From Bacteroidales bacterium (GTDB lineage: Bacteria; Bacteroidota; Bacteroidia; Bacteroidales; UBA7960): a DNA stretch of 40,522 bases. Both the position numbers and the translations under genes were made by a program. The stretch is from assembly GCA_007132585.1 (NCBI GenBank), contig SLOJ01000220.1, positions 1-40,522 of the forward strand, in the 5' to 3' direction. Position 1 is the stretch's first letter. Each line of letters begins with the position of its first letter. Of this stretch, positions 6,360 through 21,992 are shown one piece after another. The notes beneath the pieces were generated by a model. It had not been told where the DNA came from, ran no database searches, and was given only the letters and a program-made list of their open reading frames with translations.

Positions 6360-9300
6360 TCAGTTGGTATGGATATTTACCGAATTGTTCCTGATATAGT
6401 CTTTTTGAATTTCTCTCAAAACTCTTACAATTTTTCTTGATTCATCATCCAGTTCACTACAAAGTGCTTCGAGCTTGTCAATATTGTTTTGCGAACGTGT
6501 AAGAAGCTGTATTTGGGTAATCAAATCCGATACTTCATTGAATCCAAGATAGCTGAAAGCTGGCTTTATTTTGTGTACCAGTTTGTTTAAAGTTGTAAGA
6601 TCTTTTTCGTAATAGGCCTCATTGACAGCAATCATTGCCCTGGGAATATCTTTAAGAAACCTGGATATGAGTGCCAGCGTACTTTCAAGATCGTCATCAA
6701 AAATAGAGGCAAGGGCATCCTTAATATGCTTCTTTACACTTTCGCTGTCATCTGCTATAATTTGCTCTTGCTTTATTTCATCGGCCTTTTTCTCAACAAA
6801 TTCAGTTTTCTGATTAATAACTGCACGGTTGATTTTATCAAACATTGTTTCCTGGTCGCTGGGCTTGGTAATATAATCATTCATACCAGCATCTAAAACC
6901 TTTTGCCTGGTTTCGGGAGTAACATCGGCAGTTAAAGCTATAATTGGTACATTATGGTTTGCCACACCGGTATTTTTATCACGAATTTTCTGTGCAGTTT
7001 CATAGCCGTCGAGTTCAGGCATGTGCAGATCCATAAGTACCAGATTGAAATTATCCTTTTTAAGCATTTCTATTGCCTGTAAACCATTATCAGCAACTTC
7101 CAGCTCAGCAAGCCATTTTTTCAGGAGCTTGGTAATTACATATTGATTCATCGTATCATCTTCTACCAGCAAAATCTTTACTCCTTTAAGGTTCTTTAAC
7201 CTGCCACCTGGTTTTCCCAATTCCTGAATATTAGGCTTTTCGCTTATTTTAAAGGGCAGATCAACCCAAAATGTAGAGCCCATGTCTTCTATGCTTTTTA
7301 CCCCTATTTCGCCGTTCAGCAGTTCGGTAAGCTTTTTACAAATGGCCAATCCCAGGCCTGTGCCACCAAACTTTCTTGCGGTATCTTTGGTGGCTTGTGT
7401 GTAAGATTCAAAAATACCCGAGAGTTGATCTTCCGGTATACCTTTACCGGTATCTGATACCGAAAATCTTATATTTACCTTATCATCATGCATGTTTATT
7501 ACTTTAACATCTATGCTTACATGCCCTTCACTGGTAAATTTTACCGCATTACTTAGTAAGTTTAAAAGTATTTGTCTTAATCTTGCAGGATCGCCCTTCA
7601 GAACTTTAGGTGCAGCAGGATCAATGTTTACATTCAGGTCTATTGCCTTTTCTCTGGCCTTAAAATCAAATGATTTACTTGATTCTTTCACCAGAGAAAT
7701 AACGTCAAAGTCGGTTTCTTCGAATTCAATCTTGCCCGCCTCGATCTTTGAAAAGTCAAGTACTTCATTGATTACTTCAAGTAAATGATCGGAAGAAAAC
7801 TTTATGGATCTCATATTATCGAGCAATTCTGACGAAAGATTGTTTTCATCGATAATCAGTTCTGCGAGCCCGATTATATTATTCAGGGGAGTACGTATTT
7901 CGTGACTCAGGTTGCTTATAAAAAAGCTTTTTACGCTGGTAGCTTCTTCGGCTGTTTCCTTTGCCTTCTGTAATTCACTTTCAATTTTCTTACTGTGGCT
8001 AATATCAAAAACAATTGAATATTTTATGTTTTTTCCTTTTAATCTTGCTTCACTTTCATATACTTCAACAGCTCTGGTTGTGTCATCACTAAGCTTATGG
8101 GTAAAATAGTAATATGCTCTGTCATCATTTTCAGCTGTTTTCATTTCTTTCTGGATCTCTTCTTCTGTCATTGCAAGTATATCACTCATATTTTTACCCA
8201 GAAGCGCATCCTTATCCCACCCATAATAATCAACCGAAGCTTCATTGGCATCCAGAATGTCACCCGTTTCAGCGTCCGATATTAAAATTACCGTTTTACT
8301 TTTTGCAAAAAGATTTTTAAATTTTATTTCATTTTCGCGCAACAGAATCTCGGCTTCTTTTCTTTCATTTACATCAGCATGGGTGCCAATGATACGCCAT
8401 GCATTATCGTTTGAATCCAGGATAAGGGTAAAAGAAGCCAGTATCCATTTATAGAAACCATCTTTACATTTCATCCTGTATTCTGTTTGAAAAGATGGAA
8501 AATTACCTGTTTCCAGGTTTTCGAGAATTCGCACAACTTTGGCTTTATCATCAGGATGAATAAGATCGGTCCATGATTCTTTAGTGTTTTTAATATCGGT
8601 TTCCTTATATCCCAGCATTTCTTTCCATTGCAATGACAAGTAAAGAGTTTCATCTTTAAGATCATAATCAAAGATGCCCTGTCCGGTAACAGCAATAATG
8701 TTTGCCAGTCTTTCGTGCGATTCGGAAAGTTCGTTGCTTTTATGTTTCTTTTCGGTTATATCTATTGCCGTGACAATAACAGCTGTTTTACCTTCTGCTT
8801 GTATACTTCTTGCTGAAAAATCAACCCATTTGCTTTCCTGGTGGCGTGTAACAATCTTCAAGTCGTTACGAAATGAATCCTTATTCTGATCTGTTATCAG
8901 ATCATCATTATTAAAAGTTTGCAAACTATCAGGATGCAGTATTTGAAAAACTTCCATTTTAAGAAGTTCCTTACGGTGATATCCGGTAAGAATTTCAAAA
9001 GAAGGATTAACATAAATGATCCTGTAATTTTGAAACACCATAATTGGCGAAGGGGAGGATTCAATGAGCCTTAAAAGCTTTTCATGATTGATGTGCGTTT
9101 TTTTTGATTTCTGAAGTGTCCTAATCCAAAAAAATGTTATAACAATTTGTACAACGATCAGTAAACCGACAAAAAATATGAAGTTTCCGTAATAGAAAGG
9201 CAGGTTTAAATCAGCAAGCAATTTAAATTCCGTAAGTAATGAATTGGTTTTCTGCAGAAAGTTTGTTAACGTAGTAAACCCATACATAACAGTTTCAACA

Positions 9301-9467
9301 GCAGAAATAGAGCTATTTACTGCTGAGCCTGATTGTTGAATCTCGCTGGTTACGCCTGAAATTTCTCCGGGGGAGGCAGAGGCAATGCCAGACTTAAGGT
9401 ATAAACCCAGATTAAAAACCAGAAACAGAGAAAAGATTGTAAAATTTAATGAAGGTAATCTTTTCAC
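6360..9467 (-). CDS. Membrane-anchored hybrid sensor kinase (TM, 3xPAS, HisKA, HATPase, REC, Hpt; ArcB/BarA-like layout)
   Basis: PAS motifs 'YVNPSF', 'IHPDD', 'DANEAS'; H-box 'SHEIRTPL'; 'NLLSNAVKFT', 'DTGKGI', 'GGTGLGL'; REC 'LLVEDD...LMDLHMP...KP'; Hpt 'VHKIKP'. The GTG start is uncertain. Confidence 0.93.
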   Translation of the reverse strand: MKRLPSLNFTIFSLFLVFNLGLYLKSGIASASPGEISGVTSEIQQSGSAVNSSISAVETVMYGFTTLTNFLQKTNSLLTEFKLLADLNLPFYYGNFIFFVGLLIVVQIVITFFWIRTLQKSKKTHINHEKLLRLIESSPSPIMVFQNYRIIYVNPSFEILTGYHRKELLKMEVFQILHPDSLQTFNNDDLITDQNKDSFRNDLKIVTRHQESKWVDFSARSIQAEGKTAVIVTAIDITEKKHKSNELSESHERLANIIAVTGQGIFDYDLKDETLYLSLQWKEMLGYKETDIKNTKESWTDLIHPDDKAKVVRILENLETGNFPSFQTEYRMKCKDGFYKWILASFTLILDSNDNAWRIIGTHADVNERKEAEILLRENEIKFKNLFAKSKTVILISDAETGDILDANEASVDYYGWDKDALLGKNMSDILAMTEEEIQKEMKTAENDDRAYYYFTHKLSDDTTRAVEVYESEARLKGKNIKYSIVFDISHSKKIESELQKAKETAEEATSVKSFFISNLSHEIRTPLNNIIGLAELIIDENNLSSELLDNMRSIKFSSDHLLEVINEVLDFSKIEAGKIEFEETDFDVISLVKESSKSFDFKAREKAIDLNVNIDPAAPKVLKGDPARLRQILLNLLSNAVKFTSEGHVSIDVKVINMHDDKVNIRFSVSDTGKGIPEDQLSGIFESYTQATKDTARKFGGTGLGLAICKKLTELLNGEIGVKSIEDMGSTFWVDLPFKISEKPNIQELGKPGGRLKNLKGVKILLVEDDTMNQYVITKLLKKWLAELEVADNGLQAIEMLKKDNFNLVLMDLHMPELDGYETAQKIRDKNTGVANHNVPIIALTADVTPETRQKVLDAGMNDYITKPSDQETMFDKINRAVINQKTEFVEKKADEIKQEQIIADDSESVKKHIKDALASIFDDDLESTLALISRFLKDIPRAMIAVNEAYYEKDLTTLNKLVHKIKPAFSYLGFNEVSDLITQIQLLTRSQNNIDKLEALCSELDDESRKIVRVLREIQKDYIRNNSVNIHTN

Positions 9468-9776: not shown

Positions 9777-10961
9777 TCAGATAAATTCCAGAGTTACTTC
9801 TTTAAGAAACTTTTCTTCGAGTAAAGAAGCTATTTTTTTTGCCACACTACGTCGAATTTCCAGTTCAACCGGCAGATTAGGGTCCTGATGGGCAACGTTT
9901 ATAGCTGTACCAATGCATAGGTATATTTCATCACTTTCAAGCAGCAGTTTAATAATGCTATCGGCAGGTCCCTTGCCCAGCTCCGTTCGATCATTATATT
10001 TTTCAAGTATTCCGGATACTTTGCTTAATGTAAGAATTCCTTCGGTAACAAGTTCAACTCCTTCCATATGAGAAATAGGGGGAAGATCGTGGTCATCAAA
10101 CTCAAGCGTATCCTCGATGGGAAGGTTTAGTTTTTCTGAAATAATATCGGCAGTAGTACCTCCGCAAATAATCTTTTTGCCTTTAAAGTCTTTAACTTTG
10201 TTACCCAGATACTCATCTTTTTCTTTATCAAATGGAGGCCCTGAGCAAAGAAGCAATTTTCTGGGCTCACGAAAGTACACCACAACAGTGCTTATGTCAT
10301 CTTTTGATTGATATTCATCATTAGTGTGGGCGCGGTTAACAATTACCGATGCAAGTTTTGTTGCCGAAATATCCGGATGAGATGTGATTTGAGATAATAC
10401 CATATCGCGTGTATTCTCCCATCCGAAACCAAGCAGGTATTTGCCTTTTCCCAGGCCGCTCTGAGTTATTCCATCTGTAAGCATTATTATCCGGTCCTCC
10501 TTTAATGCCTTGAATGAGCATGCTTGTATTTCATTACTCCTTTTATCCTGGCTGTCAATTTTTATGGTATGCCAGTCAGGCTTAAGTTCTTCTTCATTAC
10601 GCACAATAATGCATTGAGGATTATCATAATTGATTATGGTTGTTTGACCATTATCTTCAATATCAATAATAGTAAATGTGGCATAGCTTATTTTTCTTTC
10701 ACTGCAAACCGGAAGGGTATTCATAATGATTTCAGCAATTTTATGCACATCTTTATGTTCGGCAGTAAAATTTATTGCCATGGTGGCGGTAAGTGTGGCA
10801 AGCAAATTAGCTTTTACACCATGGCCCATCCCATCCGACAATACCACTACTGTTCTGTTCTCTTCCTTAATCTTTCGTGTAAGAAAAACATCTCCGCAAA
10901 TACGCTCACCGATATGGTTTTTCTGCAATACACCAACTTCTATGAAAAAGGAATTATCCAT
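9777..10961 (-). CDS. SpoIIE/PP2C-type Ser/Thr phosphatase of the sensory hydrogenase-associated (HfsC-like) type
   Basis: 'CGD', 'LSDGMGHG', 'TDGI', 'DDIS' metal-binding motifs plus the C-terminal 'GPP...KIICGGTTA...LVTEGILTL...AHQ' extension. Confidence 0.93.
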   Translation of the reverse strand: MDNSFFIEVGVLQKNHIGERICGDVFLTRKIKEENRTVVVLSDGMGHGVKANLLATLTATMAINFTAEHKDVHKIAEIIMNTLPVCSERKISYATFTIIDIEDNGQTTIINYDNPQCIIVRNEEELKPDWHTIKIDSQDKRSNEIQACSFKALKEDRIIMLTDGITQSGLGKGKYLLGFGWENTRDMVLSQITSHPDISATKLASVIVNRAHTNDEYQSKDDISTVVVYFREPRKLLLCSGPPFDKEKDEYLGNKVKDFKGKKIICGGTTADIISEKLNLPIEDTLEFDDHDLPPISHMEGVELVTEGILTLSKVSGILEKYNDRTELGKGPADSIIKLLLESDEIYLCIGTAINVAHQDPNLPVELEIRRSVAKKIASLLEEKFLKEVTLEFI

Positions 10962-11020
10962 GAAACAAAATTTGTTTAGATCTTTATTCTGAGATTGACT
11001 TTTTATGGTTTACAAAGAGA

Positions 11021-12877
11021 TTAGTCATTTTTCTTAACCTTTTTGTAGGTTTCTATGATAGAGTTGAGCATTTTTTCGGTACTTGATGCACCCTCACCCA
11101 GAGAAAAAGCTATCTGTTGTACCATCTTCAGGTTTTCGTCAATTACCTCGGTTACCCGGTTAATAATCTCCTCTTGTCTTACTTCGGCCACATACATATC
11201 GCGGAAAACAGCTCCCGCAATTTTATTGGGCTTTAGCGAGAAAACGCTTATGTTCAGTAACCCTTCATTAAAGTTTATATCTCTTCCGAGAATATTTTCA
11301 TCCTTCTGAAGCACGTAATTGAAAAGGTTGTAAATATTATAGGGTAGTAGTGTTTTTAAATCCGCTCCAATGAGTCCGGGTATTACTTCATTTATCATTT
11401 CGGCATCTTCACCTAAAGTATTAATAAATGAACTGTTTGATTCAATCACTTTAAGATTCTCATCAACAATAACCACAGCCGATGGAAGGTTATGCAACAG
11501 TGAAGAAATGGTTTCTGACTGGGTTTTTATTTTTTGATTATCTGTTTTAAGAAGTTTTTCATTTTCTTCCAGTTCCTTCCGGTTTTTTCTTAGCTTTTCA
11601 TTGTTGGCTTTTAGCGTTTTAATGAAATCCTGTTTGTTTTTAAGTGAATAGGTCAGGCACGTATCGGGTTTAGCCAGGCCTTGACTAACAGAAACGGCAA
11701 AATCGCGGCAGCTTCTGAACCCACAGGCGTTGCAAGATGATTTTTCATCAACTGATTTATCAACAGACTTAAGTATTTCTTCAATTTTTTCATCTGAAGG
11801 AATTTCAAGTCGTTGATCATCTGAGGTGAATGTCCGTGAAAGATCAAGATCTGAGAAGTAACTCATATCTTTTTCCCATTTTTTCTTATCAAAATTTTTC
11901 AACCTTTTTTTGGCATAGTCGATCACAAGTGTTTTCCTCAAAAACTTTCGGTTATCGGGTGTGGTTCCCGGGCCCATAAGACAGCCTTTATTGTAAAACA
12001 AATTGAAGTGTTTTTTCAATACTTCGGGTCCCTGACTGAATTCATCGATGGCATCCATTATATTAAATTTTCCATCGGTAGTAAGCACTGGTGATTCCAT
12101 CATATTTTCCGATATACCAGCAGCAGTTAAAATACCCTTACTCAGGGGGTAAAGTGATCCAAGATAACCTATGGGCTCATCAAAATCAGAATATTCAACC
12201 GTTGATTCCTTTATGTTTTTCTCATGAAACATTTGCCGCAATTCATGGAAAGTAAGCACTGCATCCACTTTTCTATTTCCTTTATGTCTGTTTGCTTCAT
12301 CTTTTGCCGAAACACATGGACCGATATAAACTACTCCAATATCAAGGCCAAATTTCTTTCTTACTACCATGGCAGTGGCCGTCATAGGTGTTACAATCGG
12401 ACTTAGATTGGTTGCCATTTCAGGATAAAATTTCTCTACATAAGACACAATTGACGGGCAATTTGCACTGATGTAATACTTTCCTTTAAAATTCGTAAAC
12501 AATTTATGGTATTCTTTTGCCACCAGATCTACACCAAATGAAACTTCATTCACGTAATTAAAACCCAGGGTTCGTATCATGTCTACGAATCTTATGTAAT
12601 CGGTAATATCAGGAAATTCACCACTGATGCTTGGATCAACAATTGCAGCTATCTTTTTTTCTGATTCAAGAAGTTTGAACGTGTCAGCGATTGAACTGGC
12701 GTATGATACGGCATTTACTGGGCAAACATTTAAACAGCTTCCGCATCCTATGCATCTGTCATGGTTAATCTCAGGGTTTTCATTATGTTTCGATACTGTA
12801 ATGGCCTGTACAGGACAAGCCCTGATACATGCATGGGATTGGTTACATTTTTCAAGATCAATATTTATCAGTTGCAT
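11021..12877 (-). CDS. Group C (sensory, HydS/HfsB-like) [FeFe]-hydrogenase-like protein with ferredoxin, FeS, coiled-coil and PAS domains; H-cluster motifs degenerate
   Basis: N-terminal CxxSxxCxxxCP and CxxCxxCxxxCP; L1 'ISANCPSIV', L2 'GPCVSAKDE', L3 'LFYNKGCLMGPG'; 'CNACGFRSC...C' FeS domain; PAS 'LPSAVVIVDENLKVIESNSSF'. Confidence 0.88.
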   Translation of the reverse strand: MQLINIDLEKCNQSHACIRACPVQAITVSKHNENPEINHDRCIGCGSCLNVCPVNAVSYASSIADTFKLLESEKKIAAIVDPSISGEFPDITDYIRFVDMIRTLGFNYVNEVSFGVDLVAKEYHKLFTNFKGKYYISANCPSIVSYVEKFYPEMATNLSPIVTPMTATAMVVRKKFGLDIGVVYIGPCVSAKDEANRHKGNRKVDAVLTFHELRQMFHEKNIKESTVEYSDFDEPIGYLGSLYPLSKGILTAAGISENMMESPVLTTDGKFNIMDAIDEFSQGPEVLKKHFNLFYNKGCLMGPGTTPDNRKFLRKTLVIDYAKKRLKNFDKKKWEKDMSYFSDLDLSRTFTSDDQRLEIPSDEKIEEILKSVDKSVDEKSSCNACGFRSCRDFAVSVSQGLAKPDTCLTYSLKNKQDFIKTLKANNEKLRKNRKELEENEKLLKTDNQKIKTQSETISSLLHNLPSAVVIVDENLKVIESNSSFINTLGEDAEMINEVIPGLIGADLKTLLPYNIYNLFNYVLQKDENILGRDINFNEGLLNISVFSLKPNKIAGAVFRDMYVAEVRQEEIINRVTEVIDENLKMVQQIAFSLGEGASSTEKMLNSIIETYKKVKKND

Positions 12878-12911
12878 GTTTTTTACTTTACCTGGTTTAA
12901 GCTGAAGTAAT

Positions 12912-13184
12912 TTATGATGATGAAGAATTTAAAAGTTTCTCTGCCAGCAAATCGGTAAGATTTTCATCATTTACATTGATAATTACTTCTTCATTGATTT
13001 TCATAACAGGTCCTTTATCGCATTTCGACATGCAATGTGCGCCTTTGAGAGTTACCTCGTCTTCCAGTTTTTGTTCTTTCAAAAAATCCTGGATCATGCG
13101 CACAAGATTTCTGTTGCCCCTCGAGAAACAACTACTTCCCATGCATATGACTATTGTGTGAGGTTTTTGGGTCATGATATCCAT
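12912..13184 (-). CDS. Thioredoxin-like [2Fe-2S] ferredoxin (HfsA-like)
   Basis: 'ICMGSSCFSRG' and 'HCMSKCDKGP' motifs; first gene of the ferredoxin-HydS-phosphatase operon. Confidence 0.92.
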   Translation of the reverse strand: MDIMTQKPHTIVICMGSSCFSRGNRNLVRMIQDFLKEQKLEDEVTLKGAHCMSKCDKGPVMKINEEVIINVNDENLTDLLAEKLLNSSSS

Positions 13185-13229
13185 TTATTTTTCAGCTTCT
13201 GAAAAGCTTTTTTCTTTCAATCTGAAATG

Positions 13230-13237
13230 CAAATTTA
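13230..13237 (-). promoter_or_regulatory. Candidate -7 element for the hfsABC-like operon
   Basis: TAAATTTG(C) on the minus strand, 46 nt upstream of the start; an alternative TATTTTTG lies at 13283-13290. Confidence 0.45.
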
Positions 13238-13429
13238 TTTCCTGGAATATCAGAATTGAAGTATCTGTTTTCTATTTAAGAACAAAAATAAAGATTTGTA
13301 ATGATATAAGAGGTTAATTTGGTAACATCTTAAGCTTTATGTTGCTTCTTCATAATTAATCTAAATAACATTAAGCATTTTATCCTGATTATATGCCAGT
13401 TACATTAGGTCCAGAAGTTATTTTTTGGT

Positions 13430-13437
13430 TATATTTG
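13430..13437 (+). promoter_or_regulatory. Candidate -7 element for the hydCBA-kinase-rex operon
   Basis: TATATTTG matches TAnnTTTG, about 110 nt upstream of hydC. Confidence 0.5.
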
Positions 13438-13519
13438 TGGTTATGGAAAACAGGGTTATTTCGTGTTAAAGCAATAAAAAATCAAAAATTTTTTTTATTT
13501 CCCTGATTTGTTCCTATTA

Positions 13520-13537
13520 TTGTTAAAAAATTAGCAG
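13520..13537 (+). promoter_or_regulatory. Putative Rex operator
   Basis: TTGTTAA-AAAA-TTAGCAG, a 12/14 match to TTGTTAA-N4-TTAACAA, ending 8 nt before the hydC ATG; rex is in the same operon. Confidence 0.6.
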
Positions 13538-13545
13538 CCTAAATC

Positions 13546-14028
13546 ATGGACACTAAATTAAGTTCCATTTTTGAAAATTATCCCAATAAACAAAGGGATG
13601 ATCTCATACCTCTTTTGCACAGCATTCAGGATCAGTTTGGCTATTTATCGGAAGAGTTTATCATTGAAGTAGGCAATTATCTTAATATTTCGGTAAATAA
13701 AATTTATGGTGTTGCTACCTTTTATGATAATTTTCGTTTTGGCCCCAAAGGTAAGTTTCATATAAGACTTTGTCACGGTACTGCCTGTCATGTTGCTGGT
13801 TCTTCAAATATTCTTTCAGAACTGGAAAAACTTCTCCGAATAAGCAATGGAGAAACAGACAAAAACGGTTTGTTTAGCCTTGAAGTTGTTTCTTGTATAG
13901 GCGCCTGTGGACTGGCACCACTGATTGAGATCAACGAAGAATATTTCTCACAATTAACAACCGAATCCTTAAAAGACATTCTGAACCATTTCAGGGAAAA
14001 CCATAATAGTATTTATGAAGATCAATGA
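13546..14028 (+). CDS. hydC: HydC/NuoE-like [2Fe-2S] subunit of a multimeric hydrogenase-like complex
   Basis: 'IYGVATFY', 'LCHGTACHV', 'SCIGACGLAP'; overlaps the hydB start. Confidence 0.93.
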   Translation: MDTKLSSIFENYPNKQRDDLIPLLHSIQDQFGYLSEEFIIEVGNYLNISVNKIYGVATFYDNFRFGPKGKFHIRLCHGTACHVAGSSNILSELEKLLRISNGETDKNGLFSLEVVSCIGACGLAPLIEINEEYFSQLTTESLKDILNHFRENHNSIYEDQ

Positions 14029-15964
14029 TCGAAATGCGGTAAAAGAATTCCTCGTAAAAAAGGTTTTAAGAAATCCTGATCGTGATAAGGATACTGATAT
14101 CAGTAAACAACTCTCTCAGATAGGTCGCGACAGGATAACAAAACCACTCATTTATGTGGGTACATCTACCTGTGCTATTGCAGCAGGTGCTCAGAAAACA
14201 CATGATGCAATTGCAAAATACCTTACTGATTCGCATCATGATGTTGATCTTGTAAAAGGAGGTTGTGTGGGTTTTTGTAAAGCAGAACCATTGGTTGATG
14301 TCCAGTTGCCTGGTAAAGCACGCATTTCTTTCGGAAATATCAAAGCAGATATGGTTCCTGAGCTGCTGGATGAGATACTGAATAATCATGTGCCAACTGA
14401 TATGGTGCTTGGGCAATACCGAAGTGCTGTTCATCAGCCATGGGATAACGTATATTTCCTTGATGAGCTTGATTTTAACAAGCATCAGAAAAAAATACTG
14501 ATGGCTAATTGTGGCATCATTGATCCGGTTTCAGTTTCAGAATACATTGCAAGGGGGGGCTATCAGGCATTTGCAGATACCATAACCCGATATACGCCTT
14601 CGCAGGTATGTGATCTGGTTGAAGAAAGCATGCTTGCGGGTAGAGGAGGAGGTGCTTATATTGCAGGTAAAAAGTGGAAAATATCGCTCAATACGGTCAG
14701 CGATCAAAAGTATTTTGTTTGCAATGCAGTTGAAAGCGACCCCGGTAGTTACATGAATCGGGTAATAATGGAAAGTGATCCGCACCAGCTTATTGAAGCT
14801 ATCCTTATAGCATCATATGCTATTGGAGCTTCCAAAGCTTTTATTTTTACCCGTCGCGAGTTTCCCCTTGCCATTGAACGGTTAAATCAAGCTCTTAAGG
14901 AAGCCGATGAATATGGTGTTCTGGGACATAATATTTTTGATTCGGGTGTAAATATTGACATTGTAGTAAAGGAGGGAGCGCGAGCCTTTGTTTGTGGTGA
15001 AGAAACAGCACTTAATAACAGTATCGAAGGAAAACGTGCAATGCCGGTTTCCAAACCACCATTTCCGGCCATAAAAGGTTTATGGAATAAACCTACCATA
15101 GTAAATAACCTTGAAACGATTATCAATGTGCCTATGATCATGAAAAATGGTCCTGATTGGTTTAAAGGCATTGGCAATGAGAAAAGCAAGGGAACAAAAT
15201 TGTTTACATTAAGTGGTAAGGTAAAAAACTATGGCACTATCGAAGTGGAGATGGGAATTAGTTTCAGAGATATAGTATACAAAATTGGTGGTGGTATAAA
15301 AGATAAGCAGGATTTTAAAGCTATTATACTGGGAATTAACAGTGGTAGTTATGTAACAGAAAAAACACTGGATACCTTAGTTGACTTTGATGCACTGAAA
15401 CAAATCGGATCTGCCCTTGGAAGCGGTGCATGTGTTGTTGTTGACAAGAACTCCTGTATGCTGGATCTTGCCAAGTTTTTTACACGGTTTTTTAAAAATG
15501 AAAGTTGTGGAAAGTGTATTCCATGTCGCGAGGGAACCGCACGTATGCTTGAAATAGTTGAAACAGCTACCCGTAAACCTGAAAAAGAAAATTCTTTTCA
15601 AACCCTTGAACGCTTTAAAGGAATTATGCAGTTAAAGGGTATGGCTGACGTTATGAAGGATACCAGCCTGTGTTCGCTCGGAAAATCTGCTCCAAATGCT
15701 ATACTGAATACCCTTGCCAATTTTAAGTCGGAATTTGATGCACATGTTTTTGAAAGAAAATGTCCGGCAGGTGTTTGCCGCGATTTAAAAACCTACACGA
15801 TAGATGTTGATATGTGCACAGGATGCACTGCATGTTTTAAAAAGTGTCCGGTAGATGCAATTATAGGCACGCCAAGGCAACCACATTTTATTGTTCAGGA
15901 TAAATGCATTGCCTGCAATGCATGTTATGAGGTATGTAAGTTTAATGCTGTATTAGTGGAATAA
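14015..15964 (+). CDS. hydB: HydB/NuoF-like flavin/FeS subunit with divergent FMN/NAD loops
   Basis: N-terminal Trx-like domain, 'GRGGG', 'AFVCGEETAL', 'ESCGKCIPCREG...LCSLG', 'H...CPAGVC', two C-terminal [4Fe-4S] motifs. Confidence 0.92.
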   Translation: MKINDRNAVKEFLVKKVLRNPDRDKDTDISKQLSQIGRDRITKPLIYVGTSTCAIAAGAQKTHDAIAKYLTDSHHDVDLVKGGCVGFCKAEPLVDVQLPGKARISFGNIKADMVPELLDEILNNHVPTDMVLGQYRSAVHQPWDNVYFLDELDFNKHQKKILMANCGIIDPVSVSEYIARGGYQAFADTITRYTPSQVCDLVEESMLAGRGGGAYIAGKKWKISLNTVSDQKYFVCNAVESDPGSYMNRVIMESDPHQLIEAILIASYAIGASKAFIFTRREFPLAIERLNQALKEADEYGVLGHNIFDSGVNIDIVVKEGARAFVCGEETALNNSIEGKRAMPVSKPPFPAIKGLWNKPTIVNNLETIINVPMIMKNGPDWFKGIGNEKSKGTKLFTLSGKVKNYGTIEVEMGISFRDIVYKIGGGIKDKQDFKAIILGINSGSYVTEKTLDTLVDFDALKQIGSALGSGACVVVDKNSCMLDLAKFFTRFFKNESCGKCIPCREGTARMLEIVETATRKPEKENSFQTLERFKGIMQLKGMADVMKDTSLCSLGKSAPNAILNTLANFKSEFDAHVFERKCPAGVCRDLKTYTIDVDMCTGCTACFKKCPVDAIIGTPRQPHFIVQDKCIACNACYEVCKFNAVLVE

Positions 15965-15977
15965 TTTTAATCCGTAT

Positions 15978-17699
15978 ATGAGTTTTAACATTCAAGTAAA
16001 TAACAAACCTGTTGAGGTACACGAAGGTGAAATACTATTGAATGCCTTGCGCAGAAATGGTATTAAAATTCCTACTTTGTGCTATATGCATGGTTTTACG
16101 CCATCCGGTGCCTGCAGACTATGCGTCGTGGAGATAGATGGGAAAAGAGATCTTGTAACGTCCTGCGCTTATCCCGTTGAACCGGAAATGGTTGTAAAAA
16201 CCAATTCTGCAAGGGTAATAAAAGCCAGAAAGTCACTGGTAGAAATGTTGCTTTCCAATCATCCCGATGATTGCTTGTATTGCGAGCGCAACGGTAATTG
16301 CGAATTGCAATGGCTTGCCGAAGAAATGAATATTAAAGAGAGAAAATATTTCAGCAGCAAGCGTTCTGATAAACGTGATCATTCCAGCCCGAGTGTTTAT
16401 CGCGATCCTGCAAAGTGTATTCTTTGCAGCAGATGTGTAAGGGTTTGTGAAGAAGTTCAACTGGTTACAGCTATAGAGTTTATTTCCAGGGCTGATAAAA
16501 CTTCTGTAAATTCAGCTTTCAGCAAAGGACTCAATATTTCAAGTTGTATCAATTGCGGACAATGTATAATGGTTTGCCCTACCGGGGCACTTGTTGATAT
16601 TTCTCATATTGAGAAGGTGCAATCTGCTCTGGCAAGTGACAAAAAATACCCTGTAGCTTTTTTGTCACCCGCTTTTGTGGCATCCGTGTCCGATCATTTC
16701 AATTTAAAACCCTCTGATAAACCTGCAGGATTAATTATTGCAGCATTAAAAAATATGGGTTTCAGAAAAGTTTATGATCTGGGTTGGGCAGTGGATATGA
16801 ATATTCACCTTGAAGCTTCGCTATTGCTGGAAAGGAGTAAGAAAAAAGATACTGTTACTCCATTGTTTTCTTCCTGTTGTCCTGCCTGGATTAAATACGC
16901 TGAAGAATTTGTTCCGGAAATGATCTCCGATATCTCAACGGTTAAATCGCCTCAACAGTTGATGGGTTATATAGTTAAGAATCACGAAAAAGCTGAGGCA
17001 GAAAAGAAAAAACAGCAGCTATATACAGTTTCCCTGATGGCTTGTGTTGCCAATAAATTTGAAGGCTCAAGGGAGGGAAATACACGTAAGGGTGAATCGG
17101 AAGTTGATGCTACTTTAACCATCAGGGAGTTTCTGAAAATGCTGCGTAGTTATGGCATAAACTTACTTCGCTTTGATCCGGTTATCGCTGATAATCCTTT
17201 TGATCACTCATCTGCAGCCGGCTATCAGGTATCTTATTCAGGGGGTAAAGCTGAAGCCGTAGCCATGCATTTAAATCATCTGATAAACGGAGAGAAAAAA
17301 AACGGGCCTAAATTCACCCCACCTAAAAATCCCGGTAGTAAAAAAGAAGTTAAACTTTCAATTGGAAAACAGGAGTTTGGTTTTGCATGGGTAAGCGGAA
17401 TAGGAGAAGCACAAAAATATTTTGATCAGCTTGTAACTGAAAAAAGAAAAGACATTCATTACGTAGAGGTAATGGCTTGTCCGGGCGGTTGCGCTGGAGG
17501 AGGAGGACAACCCGTTTATTATTTCCAGGATAAACACAAAGCACGCAAAAAAACAGGTCAGGATCTTGAAAAAAGTCTAAAATCCCGAAAACCATCCCAA
17601 AACATACATATGTTGGAGTATTTGAATGTTCGTTTGGCTCGCAAAGAAGAAAAAGATGTATTACAAACCCGCTTCAAACAAAGAGATGTGATAAAATAA
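15978..17699 (+). CDS. hydA: HydA-like group A [FeFe]-hydrogenase subunit with a divergent active-site pocket
   Basis: [2Fe-2S] 'PTLC...GACRLC...TSC', His-ligated 'HPDDCLYCERNGNC', 2x[4Fe-4S]; L1 'FSSCCPAW', L2 'MACVANKFE', L3 'EVMACPGGCAGGGGQP'. Confidence 0.9.
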   Translation: MSFNIQVNNKPVEVHEGEILLNALRRNGIKIPTLCYMHGFTPSGACRLCVVEIDGKRDLVTSCAYPVEPEMVVKTNSARVIKARKSLVEMLLSNHPDDCLYCERNGNCELQWLAEEMNIKERKYFSSKRSDKRDHSSPSVYRDPAKCILCSRCVRVCEEVQLVTAIEFISRADKTSVNSAFSKGLNISSCINCGQCIMVCPTGALVDISHIEKVQSALASDKKYPVAFLSPAFVASVSDHFNLKPSDKPAGLIIAALKNMGFRKVYDLGWAVDMNIHLEASLLLERSKKKDTVTPLFSSCCPAWIKYAEEFVPEMISDISTVKSPQQLMGYIVKNHEKAEAEKKKQQLYTVSLMACVANKFEGSREGNTRKGESEVDATLTIREFLKMLRSYGINLLRFDPVIADNPFDHSSAAGYQVSYSGGKAEAVAMHLNHLINGEKKNGPKFTPPKNPGSKKEVKLSIGKQEFGFAWVSGIGEAQKYFDQLVTEKRKDIHYVEVMACPGGCAGGGGQPVYYFQDKHKARKKTGQDLEKSLKSRKPSQNIHMLEYLNVRLARKEEKDVLQTRFKQRDVIK

Positions 17700-17748
17700 A
17701 CAGGCGAAATTATCTGCGGGTAATTTTTATAAACTAGGTATAGCATAT

Positions 17749-19785
17749 ATGGATCTTCAACAAAAAAATCAATTTATTTATACGGTTAAAGACCGTTGTA
17801 AGGTTTGCTATACATGTGTAAGAGAATGTCCTGCCAAAGCCATTCGAATCGTTAACGGGCAGGCTGAAATAATTGCAACAAGGTGTATTGCTTGTGGTAA
17901 TTGTGTTAAGGTTTGCAACAGAGATGCCAAAATGTTTTCCTTTGCAATTGACAGGGTTAAAAAGCTTATAAAAAGCGAAGATAAGGTGGCTGCAATTATT
18001 GCTCCCAGCGTGGCAGGTGAGTTTATTGATATTTCAGATTACCAAACCCTTGTGGGGATGATAAGAATGCTTGGATTCGACCATGTTAATGAAGTTGCTT
18101 TTGGTGCCGAGCTGGTTGCAGATAAATATAAAGAACTGCTCAGGAAAGATCAGAAACAAACCTTTATTTCAACAAGTTGTCCGGCAATAGTATCTTATGT
18201 TGAAAAGCATCATCCACAGATAGTTAAATCACTTGCTCCTATTGTATCTCCAATGATTGCTACTGCCAGGGTACTGCATGATATACATGGCAATGATTTA
18301 AAGATTGTGTTTATTGGTCCGTGCATAGCAAAAAAAAATGAAGCAGCCCTCGGGCAATTTAAAGAAATGGTGCACGAAGTGATTTCTTTTACCGAGCTAA
18401 GAAGAATGTTTGATGAGAAAAACATAAACCCCGAACATCCTGATATTGTACCATCAGAATTTGATCAGCCCATAGCAGGTAAAGGTTCGGTTTTTCCAAT
18501 AAGCGGGGGTATGTTGCAAACCGTTGACCTGGAAGAAGATTTTCTCAATGGAGAAATTGTTGTTGCAGAAGGCAGGCAGGATATTATTGAAGTACTGAAA
18601 GAATTTGAAGAGGGGTATCTTGAAGCCAAATTATTCGATTTGCTTTGTTGCAACGGTTGTATGAATGGTCCGGGAATGAGTAGTCGTCAGAAGTTTTTTC
18701 TTAAAAGAAAAAACATCAGCAATTTTGCAAAAAGACAATTTGACCGGCTTGATCAGGCTGAATGGGAGAAAAATAAAAAGAAATACTCTAATATAAAGCT
18801 TGATAGATATTTTATAGCCGATGACCAACGATATCCTTCAAACTTTTCAGAAGAAGAGATAAATAAGGTTAAAGAAAAACTGGGTATTAAAGGGCAGGAT
18901 GATGAACTTAACTGCACTGCTTGCGGATATGATACTTGCCATGAACACGCGGTAGCTATTTTGAAAGGAATTGCTGAAACAGAAATGTGCCTGCCTTATA
19001 CTATTGATAAGCTACATAAATACATTACCGATCTAGATGTTTCCAATAAAAAACTGGCATCTACCCAAGATGCTCTCAAGCAATCTGAAAAACTGGCATC
19101 AATGGGCCAGTTGGCTGCCGGTATTGCCCATGAGGTCAATAATCCCCTGGGGGTGGTAATCATGTACGCTCATCTTTTACTTGATGAAATAGAGCCCGAT
19201 TCACCTCATTACAGAGACCTAAAGCTTATTGTTGATCAGGCTGACCGGTGCAAGAAAATTGTGGGCGGATTACTTAACTTTGCAAGAAAAAGCAAGGTAA
19301 ATATTACTGAGGTAAAAATCAGATCGCTCATTAAAAATAGTTTGAAGGCTGTAATGATGCCTTCAAACGTTGATTTAAACATAGAACTGGATACCCCCCA
19401 GGAATTTATTGCCTGCGATCATGATCAAATGGTTCAGGTATTTTCAAACCTTGCAAAAAATGCAGTGGATGCTATGCCCGATGGTGGCGAATTGCTTGTA
19501 AAAGTTGAAGATGATCCCAATATCACCGGAGGCTTGGTATTTACAGTCAAAGATACAGGCACCGGTATTTCTCCTGAAAACCTGGAGAAGATGTTTGAAC
19601 CCTTTTTCACCACTAAAGAAGATGGAAAAGGAACCGGTTTAGGTTTGCCAATCATGTATGGTATTGTAAAAATGCATAAGGGAAATATCAAGGTTGATTC
19701 AAACACTGATCCGGAGAAAGGACCCTGCGGAACCAGCTTTTATGTTAGCCTTCCCGGAGTACCGGAAAAAATTAATGCACATTGA
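17749..19785 (+). CDS. Sensory [FeFe]-hydrogenase-histidine kinase fusion (group C, kinase-linked)
   Basis: 2x[4Fe-4S]; L1 'ISTSCPAIV', L2 'GPCIAKKNE', L3 'DLLCCNGCMNGPG'; FeS 'CTACGYDTC...MC'; NtrB-type H-box 'AHEVNNPL', 'DTGTGI', 'FEPFFTTK', 'GTGLGL'. Confidence 0.93.
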   Translation: MDLQQKNQFIYTVKDRCKVCYTCVRECPAKAIRIVNGQAEIIATRCIACGNCVKVCNRDAKMFSFAIDRVKKLIKSEDKVAAIIAPSVAGEFIDISDYQTLVGMIRMLGFDHVNEVAFGAELVADKYKELLRKDQKQTFISTSCPAIVSYVEKHHPQIVKSLAPIVSPMIATARVLHDIHGNDLKIVFIGPCIAKKNEAALGQFKEMVHEVISFTELRRMFDEKNINPEHPDIVPSEFDQPIAGKGSVFPISGGMLQTVDLEEDFLNGEIVVAEGRQDIIEVLKEFEEGYLEAKLFDLLCCNGCMNGPGMSSRQKFFLKRKNISNFAKRQFDRLDQAEWEKNKKKYSNIKLDRYFIADDQRYPSNFSEEEINKVKEKLGIKGQDDELNCTACGYDTCHEHAVAILKGIAETEMCLPYTIDKLHKYITDLDVSNKKLASTQDALKQSEKLASMGQLAAGIAHEVNNPLGVVIMYAHLLLDEIEPDSPHYRDLKLIVDQADRCKKIVGGLLNFARKSKVNITEVKIRSLIKNSLKAVMMPSNVDLNIELDTPQEFIACDHDQMVQVFSNLAKNAVDAMPDGGELLVKVEDDPNITGGLVFTVKDTGTGISPENLEKMFEPFFTTKEDGKGTGLGLPIMYGIVKMHKGNIKVDSNTDPEKGPCGTSFYVSLPGVPEKINAH

Positions 19786-19807
19786 TGACTGATAAAAAAA
19801 TACAGGT

Positions 19808-20206
19808 ATGCTTAAAATTGAGAAAAAGAAGATTTTACTGGTTGATGATGATCCTGATTATCTCTTTCAGCTTACCATAGCACTGGAAGATATGGGTTTT
19901 GAAGTAATTGCAGCACAAACTCAGCAGGAAGCTGAAAATATTGTTGACAAAATGAAACCTGATCTGGCCATTCTTGATTTAATGATGGAAAATCAGGATA
20001 CTGGATTTATCCTTTGCCATCTGATAAAAAATAAATATCCTGATGTGCCCATCATCATCGCCTCGGCTGTTACAGCTGAAACAGGATTGTTGTTTGATGT
20101 TGAATCGGAAGAAGATCGTCAGTGGATCAAAGCAGATCTTTTTCTTGATAAAGGCATAAGAAATGACCAGCTTCAAAAGGAAATCAATAAATTGCTCAAA
20201 ATATAA
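19808..20206 (+). CDS. Single-domain response regulator (receiver only)
   Basis: 'ILLVDDD', 'ILDLMM' phosphoacceptor, 'SA', conserved Lys in 'LDKG'; no output domain. Confidence 0.92.
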   Translation: MLKIEKKKILLVDDDPDYLFQLTIALEDMGFEVIAAQTQQEAENIVDKMKPDLAILDLMMENQDTGFILCHLIKNKYPDVPIIIASAVTAETGLLFDVESEEDRQWIKADLFLDKGIRNDQLQKEINKLLKI

Positions 20207-20209
20207 GCA

Positions 20210-21331
20210 ATGGGAAAGCTAAATCTGCTTGTGGTTGATGATGAACCAGGAATCAGAAGTGGTATAAAACGTATTCTGGAAAGTTTCTCGGTAAGCTATC
20301 CTTTCATGGATGAAGACTTCGAATTTGATGTGCTGGAAGCCGAAACCGGAGAGGAAGCCATTGAGTTACTTGATAATTACTTGTTTGATATTGTGCTGCT
20401 TGATAACAAACTACCCGGGATTCAAGGGGTTGAAGTACTTGAGTATATTAAAAGTCAAAGTATTGATGCCATAGTGGTAATGATTACTTCATATGCATCG
20501 CTTGATCTGGCGGTAAAAGCAACCAAAAGCGGGGCTTATGATTTTGTGCCAAAACCGTTTACACCCAAAGAATTGAGAAGTTGTCTTGAGAATATTGCCA
20601 AGCAATTGTTTCTTAGGCGAATGACTCAAAAACTGCAGGTAGAAGGTAAACAAATAAGATTTCAGTTTCTATCAGTCCTTTCGCATGAATTAAAATCACC
20701 TATCAATGCCATTGAAGGGTATCTTAATCTCATGGAAACAAAAAAGAAGGGCGAAAAGATTGATGATTATGCCGAAATGATTCAGCGTTCTTTGGCAAGG
20801 GTGCAGGATATGAGAGATTTGATAATGGACCTGCTTGATTTTACGAAAATCGAATCAGGTAAAAAACAGCGTAACATAAAACCTGTTTATTTGTCTGAAA
20901 TAGCTCGTCAGGCTATTGACTTGATTCAACCGCTTTGTATCCAGAAAGACATTGATATACATTTGAATTGTAATGAAAAAATAACACTTAAAGCAGATCG
21001 TCAGGAACTCGATATAATTCTCAATAACCTGCTTTCAAACGCAGTAAAATACAATAAACAGAATGGGCGTATCGACCTTACGCTAAAAAAGGAGAAAGAT
21101 GAGGTAGTACTTAATGTAAGTGATACAGGTATTGGGATGGAAAAGGAAGATATAGACAAGCTTTTTGAAGATTTTGTGCGCATAAAAAGTGAACAAACAA
21201 AAAATATAAGCGGTACAGGATTAGGTTTATCCCTGGTGAAAAAAATCGCCGATCTCTACAATGCAAAAATTCAGGTAGAAAGTGAACCGGGAAGTGGAAG
21301 CACATTTACAATCAGGTTTCCGGGAAATTAA
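20210..21331 (+). CDS. Cytoplasmic REC-HisKA-HATPase hybrid kinase
   Basis: N-terminal receiver 'VVDDE...LLDNKLP...PKPF'; 'SHELKSPI', 'NLLSNAVKYN', 'DTGIG', 'GTGLGL'. Confidence 0.94.
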   Translation: MGKLNLLVVDDEPGIRSGIKRILESFSVSYPFMDEDFEFDVLEAETGEEAIELLDNYLFDIVLLDNKLPGIQGVEVLEYIKSQSIDAIVVMITSYASLDLAVKATKSGAYDFVPKPFTPKELRSCLENIAKQLFLRRMTQKLQVEGKQIRFQFLSVLSHELKSPINAIEGYLNLMETKKKGEKIDDYAEMIQRSLARVQDMRDLIMDLLDFTKIESGKKQRNIKPVYLSEIARQAIDLIQPLCIQKDIDIHLNCNEKITLKADRQELDIILNNLLSNAVKYNKQNGRIDLTLKKEKDEVVLNVSDTGIGMEKEDIDKLFEDFVRIKSEQTKNISGTGLGLSLVKKIADLYNAKIQVESEPGSGSTFTIRFPGN

Positions 21332-21353
21332 TTATAAATATTATTTATACCAA

Positions 21354-21992
21354 ATGGACCCACAAAAAAGTAAAGATCTTCCAGGAAAGACCATTGAACG
21401 TCTTAGCCAATACAGGAGAATTCTTTTTAACAGTATAAACGAGGGTAAAGTAAATGTATATTCACATGAGCTTGCCCGCATGATGAATCTTACTCCCGTG
21501 CAGGTACGTCGTGATCTTATGTTGATCGGGTATTCGGGTAGCCAGAGCAAAGGCTATGTGATAAAAGATCTCATCAGCCTTATCGGTAAGATCATTGACA
21601 GTGATGAACCGCAGAAAGTGGCCATTGTTGGTATGGGTAACCTGGGGCGGGCAATAACAAGTTATTTCTCCGGTAAAAGAGAACGTTTATCAATTGTTGC
21701 AGCTTTTGATAACGATATGCAAAAAGCCAATCGCATTATAGCAGGTGTTCCGTGTCATCATGTAAACAAACTAAATGAAATACTTCCGGCTGAAGGTATA
21801 AAAATTGCAATACTTACATTAGCGCCGGAAGCAACCAATGAAGTGGCTAAAATGCTTTTTGATGCAGGAATAAAGGGAATTCTTAATTATACATCAGTAC
21901 CCCTTACAGTTCCCGAAGGAGTATTTCTGGAGGAATATGATATTGTTACTTCTCTTGAAAAGCTGGCGTTCTTGGTTAAACAGGATATGTAA
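21354..21992 (+). CDS. rex: Redox-sensing (NADH/NAD+) transcriptional repressor Rex
   Basis: 'TIERLSQY', 'QVRRDL...G..G...KGY' winged HTH; Rossmann 'VGMGNLGRA', 'GILNY'. Start moved to ATG 21354 because the longer ORF overlaps the upstream kinase. Confidence 0.96.
   Translation: MDPQKSKDLPGKTIERLSQYRRILFNSINEGKVNVYSHELARMMNLTPVQVRRDLMLIGYSGSQSKGYVIKDLISLIGKIIDSDEPQKVAIVGMGNLGRAITSYFSGKRERLSIVAAFDNDMQKANRIIAGVPCHHVNKLNEILPAEGIKIAILTLAPEATNEVAKMLFDAGIKGILNYTSVPLTVPEGVFLEEYDIVTSLEKLAFLVKQDM

Follow-up and report, generated by a model that had tools for sequence, protein, structure and literature searches.

A conserved Bacteroidales gene island joins a remodelled HydABC complex to hydrogenase-domain signalling proteins

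Introduction

H2 and redox sensing in fermenters is still largely inferred from gene neighbourhoods, and several described systems resemble in one respect or another the locus reported here, a ten-gene island at positions 9777 to 21,992 of a 40,522-nucleotide stretch of Bacteroidales DNA (contig SLOJ01000220.1 of assembly GCA_007132585.1; the whole stretch is hereafter the window) that encodes three [FeFe]-hydrogenase domains (H-domains). The sensory hydrogenase HydS of Thermotoga maritima and Ruminococcus albus combines a 2x[4Fe-4S] domain, an H-domain, a four-Cys motif and a C-terminal signalling domain, with the residues equivalent to C299 and M353 replaced; it is encoded beside a bifurcating hydrogenase and has been proposed to act in Ser/Thr kinase/phosphatase signalling (PMC10055695, PMC5707799), and HydS with kinase/phosphatase signalling is described for R. 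albus and Thermoanaerobacterium (PMC5707799). In Thermoanaerobacterium, the H-domain/PAS protein HfsB of the four-gene hfsABCD operon regulates hydrogenase and fermentation balance, and a link to Rex has been discussed (PMC5707799, PMC12288451). Sub-types IV and V of the BfuABC complexes of Hydrogenedentota have a group C "BfuT" protein with PAS or histidine kinase domains beside an A3 hydABC (PMC11406978). A hydrogenase-derived H2 sensor with a histidine kinase is represented by HoxBC and HoxJ of Ralstonia eutropha, mentioned in PMC5707799, and an HydABC-type core in which the HydA homolog lacks the catalytic H-cluster by NiFe-HydABCSL of Acetomicrobium mobile (PMC9304861).

The island consists of two divergent arms. 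The left arm encodes a small ferredoxin, a PAS-linked H-domain protein (HPAS) and a SpoIIE/PP2C-type Ser/Thr phosphatase, and the right arm comprises hydC, hydB, hydA and the genes for an H-domain histidine kinase (HHK), a single-domain response regulator (REC), a hybrid kinase (REC-kinase) and Rex. We find that an ancestral operon of hydC-hydB-hydA, HHK, REC and REC-kinase, with a canonical HydABC, is widespread in Bacteroidales, and that in the family of the window it gained rex and the divergent ferredoxin/HPAS/PP2C arm. The island HydABC has retained its whole Fe-S wiring, while its flavin/NAD pocket and the surroundings of its H-cluster have been rewritten. We give about even chances to the reading that one family of sediment Bacteroidales has inherited vertically, in this island, a hub for H2/redox signalling whose core is a former hydrogenase, now a pseudo-enzyme.

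Results

Distribution of the island and of its parent operon

A HydA scan returned 80 loci (L numbers), all from metagenome-assembled genomes (MAGs) of Bacteroidota save one from Ignavibacteria, and the ten window proteins were compared with the ORFs of these loci by blastp. The loci of the island clade (L007-L035) have the ten-gene order of the window, complete in 18 of them and cut by contig ends in the others; the full order is also present in L080, which with L078 forms a pair of deep-branching island-type loci, making 19 loci. A wide clade of 49 loci has hydC-hydB-hydA-HHK-REC-REC-kinase, and in the blastp gene strings of these loci no left-arm protein or Rex was matched within the flanks. 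In each of the 73 loci with both genes, hydA and the kinase gene are neighbours, and the REC-kinase gene is syntenic in island and wide-clade loci alike. REC is 73-100% identical among the island loci. The far end of the left arm is, in most full-length island loci, a hybrid sensor kinase, with a homolog of ~915-1090 amino acids (aa) at the same place in L007, L010, L011, L013, L015-L021 and L023. The initial annotation of this DNA had proposed a search for conserved synteny, and the island gene order indeed recurs in related Bacteroidales MAGs, an HPAS ortholog (at least 61% identity, fragments included) being found in 66 of the 77 genomes, and in 9 of the 11 genera, of the GTDB family to which the window belongs.

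In most wide-clade loci (L036-L077), hydC is preceded at ~0.5 kb by a gene whose product is REC alone plus a short extension, for example at L046:6897-7400, and in L069 a double-REC protein takes its place. Neither arrangement includes a DNA-binding output domain, and in the REC-only protein no output domain of any kind was recognizable.

A phylogenetic tree of 81 HydA proteins was constructed with IQ-TREE in quick mode (LG+G4) and rooted on three Firmicute-like HydA. The island-clade HydA proteins are monophyletic (Shimodaira-Hasegawa-like approximate likelihood ratio test, SH-aLRT, 100), with a stem 0.67 substitutions per site long, and they group with L078 and L080 at an SH-aLRT of 89, a grouping that is open to long-branch attraction. 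The L2 lysine K358 was lost at least four times on this tree. The median ratio of HydA to HHK distances is 1.51 within the island clade (276 pairs from 24 loci) versus 0.77 within the wide clade (820 pairs from 41 loci), and that of HydB to HHK distances is 1.17 versus 0.78, the pairs in both comparisons being non-independent. The island HydABC has evolved about twice as fast relative to HHK, yet under purifying selection. The pairwise ratio of nonsynonymous to synonymous substitution rates (dN/dS, NG86) is 0.05-0.10 for hydA, at dS 0.5-1.4, and 0.03-0.08 for hydB and for the kinase gene. It is likewise 0.03-0.08 for the PP2C gene and 0.025-0.056 for the HPAS gene, and the ferredoxin gene is the least constrained of the island at 0.08-0.27. 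Lineage-specific decay, which the initial annotation expected to show as dN/dS near 1 without synteny, is not what the hydA ratios and the conserved gene order indicate.

At least half of the sampled words of the window are present in seven public DNA runs, which are metagenomes of soda lakes, salt lakes and alkaline sediments, and several public runs hold DNA contigs that differ from the window at few positions.

HydA retains its cluster ligands in rewritten surroundings

HydA was aligned with CpI, whose residue numbering is used below, and with three HydA chains of solved structure. The pocket residues, which make the contacts to the distal CN and the wall of the cavity, are K358, A230, I268, P354, F417 and V423, and the proton path is R286-E282-S319-E279-C299 (PMC10147833). 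The equivalent of K358 (CrHydA1 K228) is extremely well conserved, and its variants prevent H-cluster assembly (PMC9516953); mutagenesis of these residues (Knörzer et al. 2012) is taken here as related by PMC9516953 and PMC10055695. The window HydA retains C299, C300, C355, C499 and C503, with Ala at P354 and Asn at K358, and is further changed at E282 (Leu), A230 (Ser), F417 (Val) and V423 (Lys). Across the 30 island-clade sequences, pocket and proton-path positions that are fixed in the 49 wide-clade sequences vary freely (Table 1). The accessory Fe-S ligands are kept, all 17 columns being conserved in at least 29 of the 30 island sequences. In the deep-branching L078 and L080 proteins, C299 is Ala, E279 is Leu and K358 is either Ala or Gly. 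Within the island clade, the L015 protein (L015:9983-11713) is the sole sequence in which C299 is replaced (Asp).

Table 1. Residues of the HydA pocket and proton path in the two clades (CpI numbering; 30 island-clade sequences; wide-clade denominators 47-49 by position)
Position	Island clade	Wide clade
A230	kept 0/30 (Ser 29)	49/49
I268-equivalent	Leu, Met or Gln	Thr 49/49
E282	kept 1/30	49/49
S319	kept 21/30	49/49
K358	Asn 19, Glu 2, Lys 9 (n=30)	Lys 48/48
F417	kept 0/30	47/47
V423	Lys 30/30	Val 46/47

The same divergence is apparent from curated family models (Table 2), where the island-type proteins fall below both cut-offs and the wide-clade and canonical proteins pass them. The small-subunit domain PF02256 scores 80 bits in the wide-clade L046 protein and 26 bits in L025, and is undetected in the window HydA.

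Table 2. HydA scores on curated family models
Protein	TIGR02512 (group A; cut-off 406)	NF040763 (NADH-dependent group A6; cut-off 765)	Outcome
Window HydA	334	536	fails both
L025 HydA	341	571	fails both
L080 HydA	350	565	fails both
Wide-clade L046 HydA	509	829	passes both
Canonical HydA, L097 first	514	873	passes both
Canonical HydA, L097 second	537	903	passes both

The flavin/NAD(H) pocket of HydB carries new invariant residues

The best PDB matches of HydB are HydB/NfnB chains, and it aligns over its full length to the HydB proteins of 7q4v, 8a6t and 7p5h. Its Pfam architecture includes the N-terminal [2Fe-2S] domain and the C-terminal 2x[4Fe-4S] domain. In the flavin/NAD(H) pocket, however, all 27 island sequences carry D196V, G198S, A202S, F203Y, D205N and G280R (A. 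mobile numbering), and the GGPSGGC stretch is rewritten, whereas the canonical flavin/NAD motifs are present in 46/46 wide-clade sequences and in the solved HydB, NfnB and NuoF chains. A202 and M204 are conserved residues specific to the Bfu family (PMC9304861). The island Val at D196 replaces a residue of the NADE motif that is invariant in every solved relative aligned. Presumably, by analogy with the complex I structures, D196 binds the flavin. Of the 277 positions that are at least 95% invariant in the wide clade, the island keeps 184 and replaces 49, mostly by a new invariant residue. The conserved Cys/His columns are nevertheless kept in 25 of 26 cases, the one lost (C446Y) lying within the GGPSGGC stretch and outside the cluster motifs; in HydC, all six such columns are kept in 24/24 sequences. 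HydABC had been called degenerate in the initial annotation. It is indeed atypical, at both catalytic sites and beyond what was seen there, but degenerate is the wrong word for a complex in which the new residues are invariant (27/27 for HydB).

The kinase-fused and the PAS-linked H-domains

In HHK, the four cluster Cys and the Lys of the H-domain are intact, C299 is replaced by Ser and M353 by Gly, and these motifs are conserved across 73 sequences, with the Cys499-equivalent in L031 as the sole exception. Four Cys plus Lys, replaced C299 and M353, an extra four-Cys motif and a signalling output domain together form the signature of group C (sensory) proteins, and the HHK motifs agree with the sensory-type substitution pattern described for TmHydS (PMC10055695). 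An H-box can also be recognized in its sequence. From these motifs, HHK is likely to be an H2 sensor kinase. PAS-fused and kinase-fused forms are both filed under C3 in PMC11406978, so the subgroup labels of the initial annotation are uncertain.

HPAS has Ala at the L2 Lys and Asn at the third cluster Cys position. The L3 loop of HK-type and HPAS-type proteins is one residue shorter than that of the ~575-aa HydS-like proteins, and the third cluster Cys of HK-type proteins therefore sits three residues before the last Cys. Of 22 HPAS orthologs, 21 have both substitutions, Ala for the Lys and one of Asn, Asp and His for the Cys499-equivalent; L080 keeps the Cys. HPAS thus departs from the conservation of H-cluster ligands and CN-bonding residues that characterizes sensory enzymes (PMC10055695). 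As a general homolog search with HPAS gave just close relatives under generic names, outgroups were taken from a representative search, in which HPAS was aligned with 150 representatives drawn from a library of 1.84 billion proteins. Among these, the ~575-aa HydS-like representatives typically retain the third cluster Cys and the Lys, and the nearest outgroup families of HPAS (40-56% identity) retain the Cys and have lost the Lys. The earlier statement that only the kinase-fused H-domain of the island keeps all cluster Cys and the Lys holds, with the nuance that the Lys is the only one of those residues missing from HydA. These motif states are not due to chance, because they are conserved over 21 to 30 orthologs.

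Three further relatives of HPAS (P0125, P0136 and P0144) have lost most of the H-cluster Cys, with Asp, Glu or Leu at the L1/L2 Cys positions and no Cys in L3. Their sequences point to a possible wider family of pseudo-hydrogenase sensors.

The C-terminus of HPAS had been assigned as a PAS domain. This module is clearly homologous to the C-terminus of the ~575-aa HydS-like proteins, but its match to Pfam PAS/PAS_8 (17-20 bits, E 0.0006-0.006) is below the gathering score in all four members scored, and a sequence search of the C-terminus against the PDB returned nothing useful.

In the phosphatase encoded beside HPAS, the metal-binding residues D43/G44, D163/G164 and D221/D222 are invariant in 22 sequences. 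Its C-terminal domain (residues ~235-394) is highly conserved; it had no Pfam match, an Atlas search gave unnamed clusters only, and a profile search of the PDB with the phosphatase gave weak RsbX/SpoIIE matches confined to the N-terminal half.

Other hydrogenases in the same genomes

PF02906 was searched in 17 island-type genomes (that of the window, G001-G005 and G010-G020). A canonical hydrogenase elsewhere in the genome, which the initial annotation had suggested looking for, is present in all of them: each has at least one further HydA at 307-335 bits, and 14 have two such genes, while the island HydA itself scores 209-246 bits. In 9 wide-clade genomes, the HydA beside the kinase scores 307-329 bits, and in four of these (G007, G008, G009 and G025) that HydA and the kinase are the sole H-domain genes. 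The simplest history is that the hydCBA-kinase operon is ancestral, that in this family other hydrogenases took over bulk H2 metabolism, and that the old HydABC was kept for a different role that is still under constraint.

The additional locus in G005 begins with hydC, a short hydB (385 aa), hydA and rex; genes for a 459-aa HydS-like protein, PHP and HATPase follow, and then a full-length hydB and another hydA. An equivalent Firmicute-like locus with a second rex is found at L097:3687-16805 (short hydB ~390 aa, HydS-like protein ~460 aa), and the first part of such a locus is present in the genome of the window (G000), split over C188:3858-6654 and C19:2-4191. In the HydA encoded there, Ser replaces the second Cys of the L1 motif; this is normal, since that Ser is also found in A. 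woodii HydA1 (7q4v_A), an active enzyme.

A private element in the control region

An imperfect palindrome of 19 bp lies in the control region between the two arms (Table 3). Exact copies occur in 18 of 24 island intergenic regions, mostly 157-174 nt upstream of hydC, and the element is present at up to two mismatches in 19 of 29 island-clade loci; of the remainder, L008, L012, L022, L026 and L028-L030 are cut before the region, and L023, L024 and L032 have diverged. At the same threshold, it was found in 0/49 wide-clade loci and in neither L078 nor L080. Candidate Bacteroidetes-type -7 boxes, according to what we take to be their consensus, lie at ~13283-13290 (minus strand) and ~13433-13440 (plus strand), with the 19-bp element between them, and both are among the conserved 10-mers of the control region. 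The genome of 2.38 Mb has one exact copy of the element. Its sole near copy (two mismatches, C251:2114) is 11 nt upstream of a citrate-synthase-like ORF, which is preceded by an isocitrate-dehydrogenase-like and followed by an aconitase-like ORF.

The obvious candidate for the protein that binds the element is the island's own Rex. The sequence of the element is unlike the Firmicute Rex box as we assume it to be, and a search of the window with that presumed 18-nt consensus, at up to three mismatches, gave 4 hits versus 5.6 expected and none in the control region; a Rex-box-like hit at 13569 falls inside hydC.

Parts of HPAS (11402-11572), hydB (14184-14323 and 14581-14745), hydA (16010-16215), REC (19831-19995) and rex (21718-21986) are covered, with 0-1 differences, by short contigs of a metatranscriptome library that shares its sample with one of the matching DNA runs. 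Since such libraries can contain DNA, these contigs are a weak hint of expression, and the uncovered parts of the island are no sign of silence.

Gene map and surroundings

The source of the window, of which it is contig C17, is a MAG of 2.38 Mb in 257 contigs, 83.6% complete. The gene map of the initial annotation was reproduced, with every ORF at the coordinates listed in Table 3, a 361-nt gap between the arms and Pfam support for the domains, PAS excepted. On NF003995, Rex scores 199.9 bits (cut-off 126) in an alignment that begins at residue 29, and the second of the two possible starts of rex is the likelier. In the ORF list and by Pfam, the island has no catalytic subunit genes beyond those of HydABC.

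Table 3. Features of the island and its surroundings in the window
Feature	Position	Strand	Basis or remark
Hybrid sensor kinase, 1035 aa (2 PAS, HisKA, HATPase, REC)	6360..9467	-	Pfam; extends left arm
SpoIIE/PP2C-type Ser/Thr phosphatase	9777..10961	-	ORF list and Pfam PF07228, 61.6 bits (residues 34-230)
HPAS, 618 aa: 2x[4Fe-4S] domain, H-domain, 4-Cys "FeS" motif, coiled coil, PAS-like C-terminus	11021..12877	-	Pfam PF02906, 134.8 bits, and PF04060
Thioredoxin-like [2Fe-2S] ferredoxin, 90 aa, Cx4C...Cx3C	12912..13184	-	Pfam PF01257, 47.5 bits; four Cys in translation
Divergent control region, 361 nt	13185..13545		between ferredoxin and hydC
Imperfect palindrome, 19 bp	13356..13374	+	14/19 positions self-complementary; candidate operator common to both promoters
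hydC (NuoE-like [2Fe-2S] subunit)	13546..14028	+	Pfam PF01257, 167 bits
hydB (NuoF-like), 649 aa	14015..15964	+	14-nt overlap with hydC; full bifurcating-type architecture
hydA (group-A-like large subunit), 573 aa	15978..17699	+	13-nt gap after hydB; Pfam 213 bits
HHK (H-domain histidine kinase): 2x[4Fe-4S], H-domain, 4-Cys motif, HisKA, HATPase	17749..19785	+	Pfam; 49-nt gap after hydA
REC, single-domain response regulator	19808..20206	+	Pfam PF00072
REC-kinase: REC-HisKA-HATPase hybrid kinase	20210..21331	+	Pfam
rex, NADH/NAD+-sensing repressor	21282 (GTG) or likelier 21354 (ATG)..21992	+	NF003995; Pfam PF06971 (wHTH) and PF02629 (Rossmann)
hydG (H-cluster maturase)	23921..25348	+	TIGR03955, 509.9 bits (cut-off 312); 2 kb 3' of the island, past ribF and an MBL-fold gene

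Riboflavin/FAD genes flank the island, with a ribD-like gene upstream (5222-6280) and the FAD synthetase gene ribF (22031-22951) right after rex; their position may be a coincidence or may be tied to the altered flavin site of HydB. Downstream of hydG, an Rrf2-family (iron-dependent) regulator is encoded at 25993-26403. Of the other maturases, hydF had no match over the cut-off in this MAG and hydE was found as a contig-edge fragment alone, absences that carry no meaning at 83.6% completeness.

Discussion

If the island is the H2/redox signalling hub to which we give even chances, its parts could work together as follows. The kinase-fused H-domain would bind H2 and thereby set autophosphorylation, which would feed REC and REC-kinase. 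The remodelled HydABC would no longer be a high-turnover hydrogenase, and its Asn and Glu variants of HydA would probably be unable to hold the [2Fe] subcluster; the complex may instead have an accessory, redox-active part, informing the sensors of the ferredoxin/electron status or setting it for them. With the small ferredoxin, the pseudo-H-domain of HPAS may use the Fe-S clusters left to it as a redox sensor, and it may gate the PP2C phosphatase. Rex would add an NADH/NAD+ input, with Rex or another factor acting at the 19-bp element. The targets of this circuit are probably the canonical hydrogenases encoded elsewhere in the genome.

A bolder version, which we regard as doubtful, would have HydABC and HHK form one redox-wired complex, the [FeFe] counterpart of HoxBC-HoxJ. 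The H-cluster of HHK would read H2 and HydABC would read ferredoxin/nucleotide status, the mix of the two setting phosphorylation, and the pseudo-hydrogenase/PP2C arm and a dedicated Rex would close the loop on a private 19-bp operator.

Several observations weigh against a signalling hub around a pseudo-enzyme. HydA retains C299, the four cluster Cys, M353, M497 and E279, and keeps K358 in 9/30 sequences, as would be expected if the H-cluster were still bound. Nor is the loss of E282 proof of inactivity, since the sensory HydS turns over H2 slowly despite the absence of the classical proton path (PMC10055695). An altered specificity would explain the strictly conserved new residues of HydB as well as a lost one would. 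An H-cluster maturase gene, hydG, lies 2 kb downstream, the island encodes no DNA-binding response regulator, and in the wide clade the same operon is evidently a regulated enzyme operon. The association between island type and remodelling, furthermore, represents one or two evolutionary events rather than 32 independent ones. The suggestion of the initial annotation that the locus is purely sensory went too far, given the Fe-S ligands, C299 and four cluster Cys that are kept, the Lys present in 9/30 sequences and the nearby hydG.

On the foremost rival reading, the island HydABC still works as a hydrogenase, bifurcating or NAD(P)H-linked, and it is the bias, the affinity or the nucleotide used that has changed; it would then be a third isoenzyme whose own operon is regulated by the kinases, PP2C and Rex, as presumably in the wide clade. 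We hold this to be possible, if somewhat improbable. The retention of all Fe-S ligands with C299 and the cluster Cys, dN/dS values of 0.05-0.10 and a HydB pocket whose new residues are invariant in 27/27 sequences, as in a functional site, are what a working enzyme would show; hydG is close by, the wide-clade operon pairs the same regulators with a canonical enzyme, and short near-identical hydA and hydB contigs occur in the metatranscriptome library, although these are weak evidence and could derive from DNA. It is difficult to reconcile such an enzyme with the replacement of K358 in 21/30 sequences, as the equivalent Lys is needed for H-cluster assembly (PMC9516953), with the retention of E282 in 1/30 and of F417 and A230 in 0/30, or with the change of HydB D196 (NADE) to Val. 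HydA also lies below the curated family cut-offs, and pocket and proton-path positions that are fixed in the wide clade vary freely.

The complex could also be another Bfu-family oxidoreductase or a kinase-coupled complex, in which HydA would be a mere Fe-S conduit and the kinase H-domain a docked, H2-reactive "T" subunit. There is a precedent for a HydA homolog without an H-cluster in the Bfu complex NiFe-HydABCSL (PMC9304861), and group C proteins beside BfuABC are described as BfuT (PMC11406978); the 49 nt between hydA and the kinase gene, their adjacency in all 73 loci that hold both, and the intact Fe-S wiring would also suit such an arrangement. However, the H-cluster Cys retained by HydA would be needless in a mere conduit, and no extra catalytic subunit genes are present in the island, which makes this alternative quite unlikely in our judgement. 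That the odd residues reflect lineage-specific decay or an error of assembly or sequencing is highly implausible, even with an 83.6% complete MAG in 257 contigs, because the same states recur in independent MAGs with intact ORFs and dN/dS of 0.05-0.10 and contigs of several public DNA runs match the window with few differences; we therefore rejected a pseudogene or assembly error.

The loci form a natural series from the canonical hydCBA-kinase operon through island variants that keep the Lys to those with Asn, Glu, Ala or Gly, along which catalytic constraints have loosened on a bifurcating hydrogenase that retains its Fe-S wiring and its neighbouring sensors. Should the remodelled complex be part of a sensor, it would be an [FeFe] example of an enzyme turned regulator, and natural variants could serve to test what the distal-CN Lys, the Bfu flavin pocket and the proton path do. 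If it is still active, residues thought to be essential would be replaceable in nature. In either case, counts of HydA in metagenomes can include proteins other than ordinary hydrogenases.

The initial annotation knew of no description of this combination of genes. Parts of it are known, namely group C proteins beside A3 HydABC and HydS/Hfs signalling (PMC11406978, PMC5707799), and the island itself was not found described. In the Creative Commons-licensed literature of PMC and bioRxiv, supplements apart, there was no report of this Bacteroidales island or of its private 19-bp element, of conserved rewriting of both HydABC sites, of natural replacement of the L2 Lys (K358), or of a PAS-linked H-domain lacking a cluster Cys; the supplementary alignments for Hydrogenedentota and Bfu proteins might hold similar variants.

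When the island is set against the known systems, differences are apparent in each case. HoxBC, a low-activity H2 sensor, is an enzyme of another, unrelated class that lacks a flavoprotein module, and its analogy with the island is one of function only. The Hfs operon, whose hfsA and hfsC genes presumably code for a small Fe-S protein and a PP2C phosphatase, respectively, has in hfsD an active hydrogenase of its own; the left arm of the island has none and instead faces the hydCBA-kinase operon. In NiFe-HydABCSL, the H-cluster is absent outright and NiFe subunits are catalytic, whereas here the Cys ligands remain and such subunits are not encoded nearby. The BfuABC complexes of Hydrogenedentota are treated as bifurcating hydrogenases in the passages of PMC11406978 considered here, where remodelled BfuA/BfuB sites, dual arms and rex are unreported. 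Unlike the HydS systems, the island encodes two proteins of this architecture, one fused to a histidine kinase and one PAS-linked; the PAS-linked protein is without one cluster Cys and the Lys, and the HydABC encoded beside them is itself remodelled.

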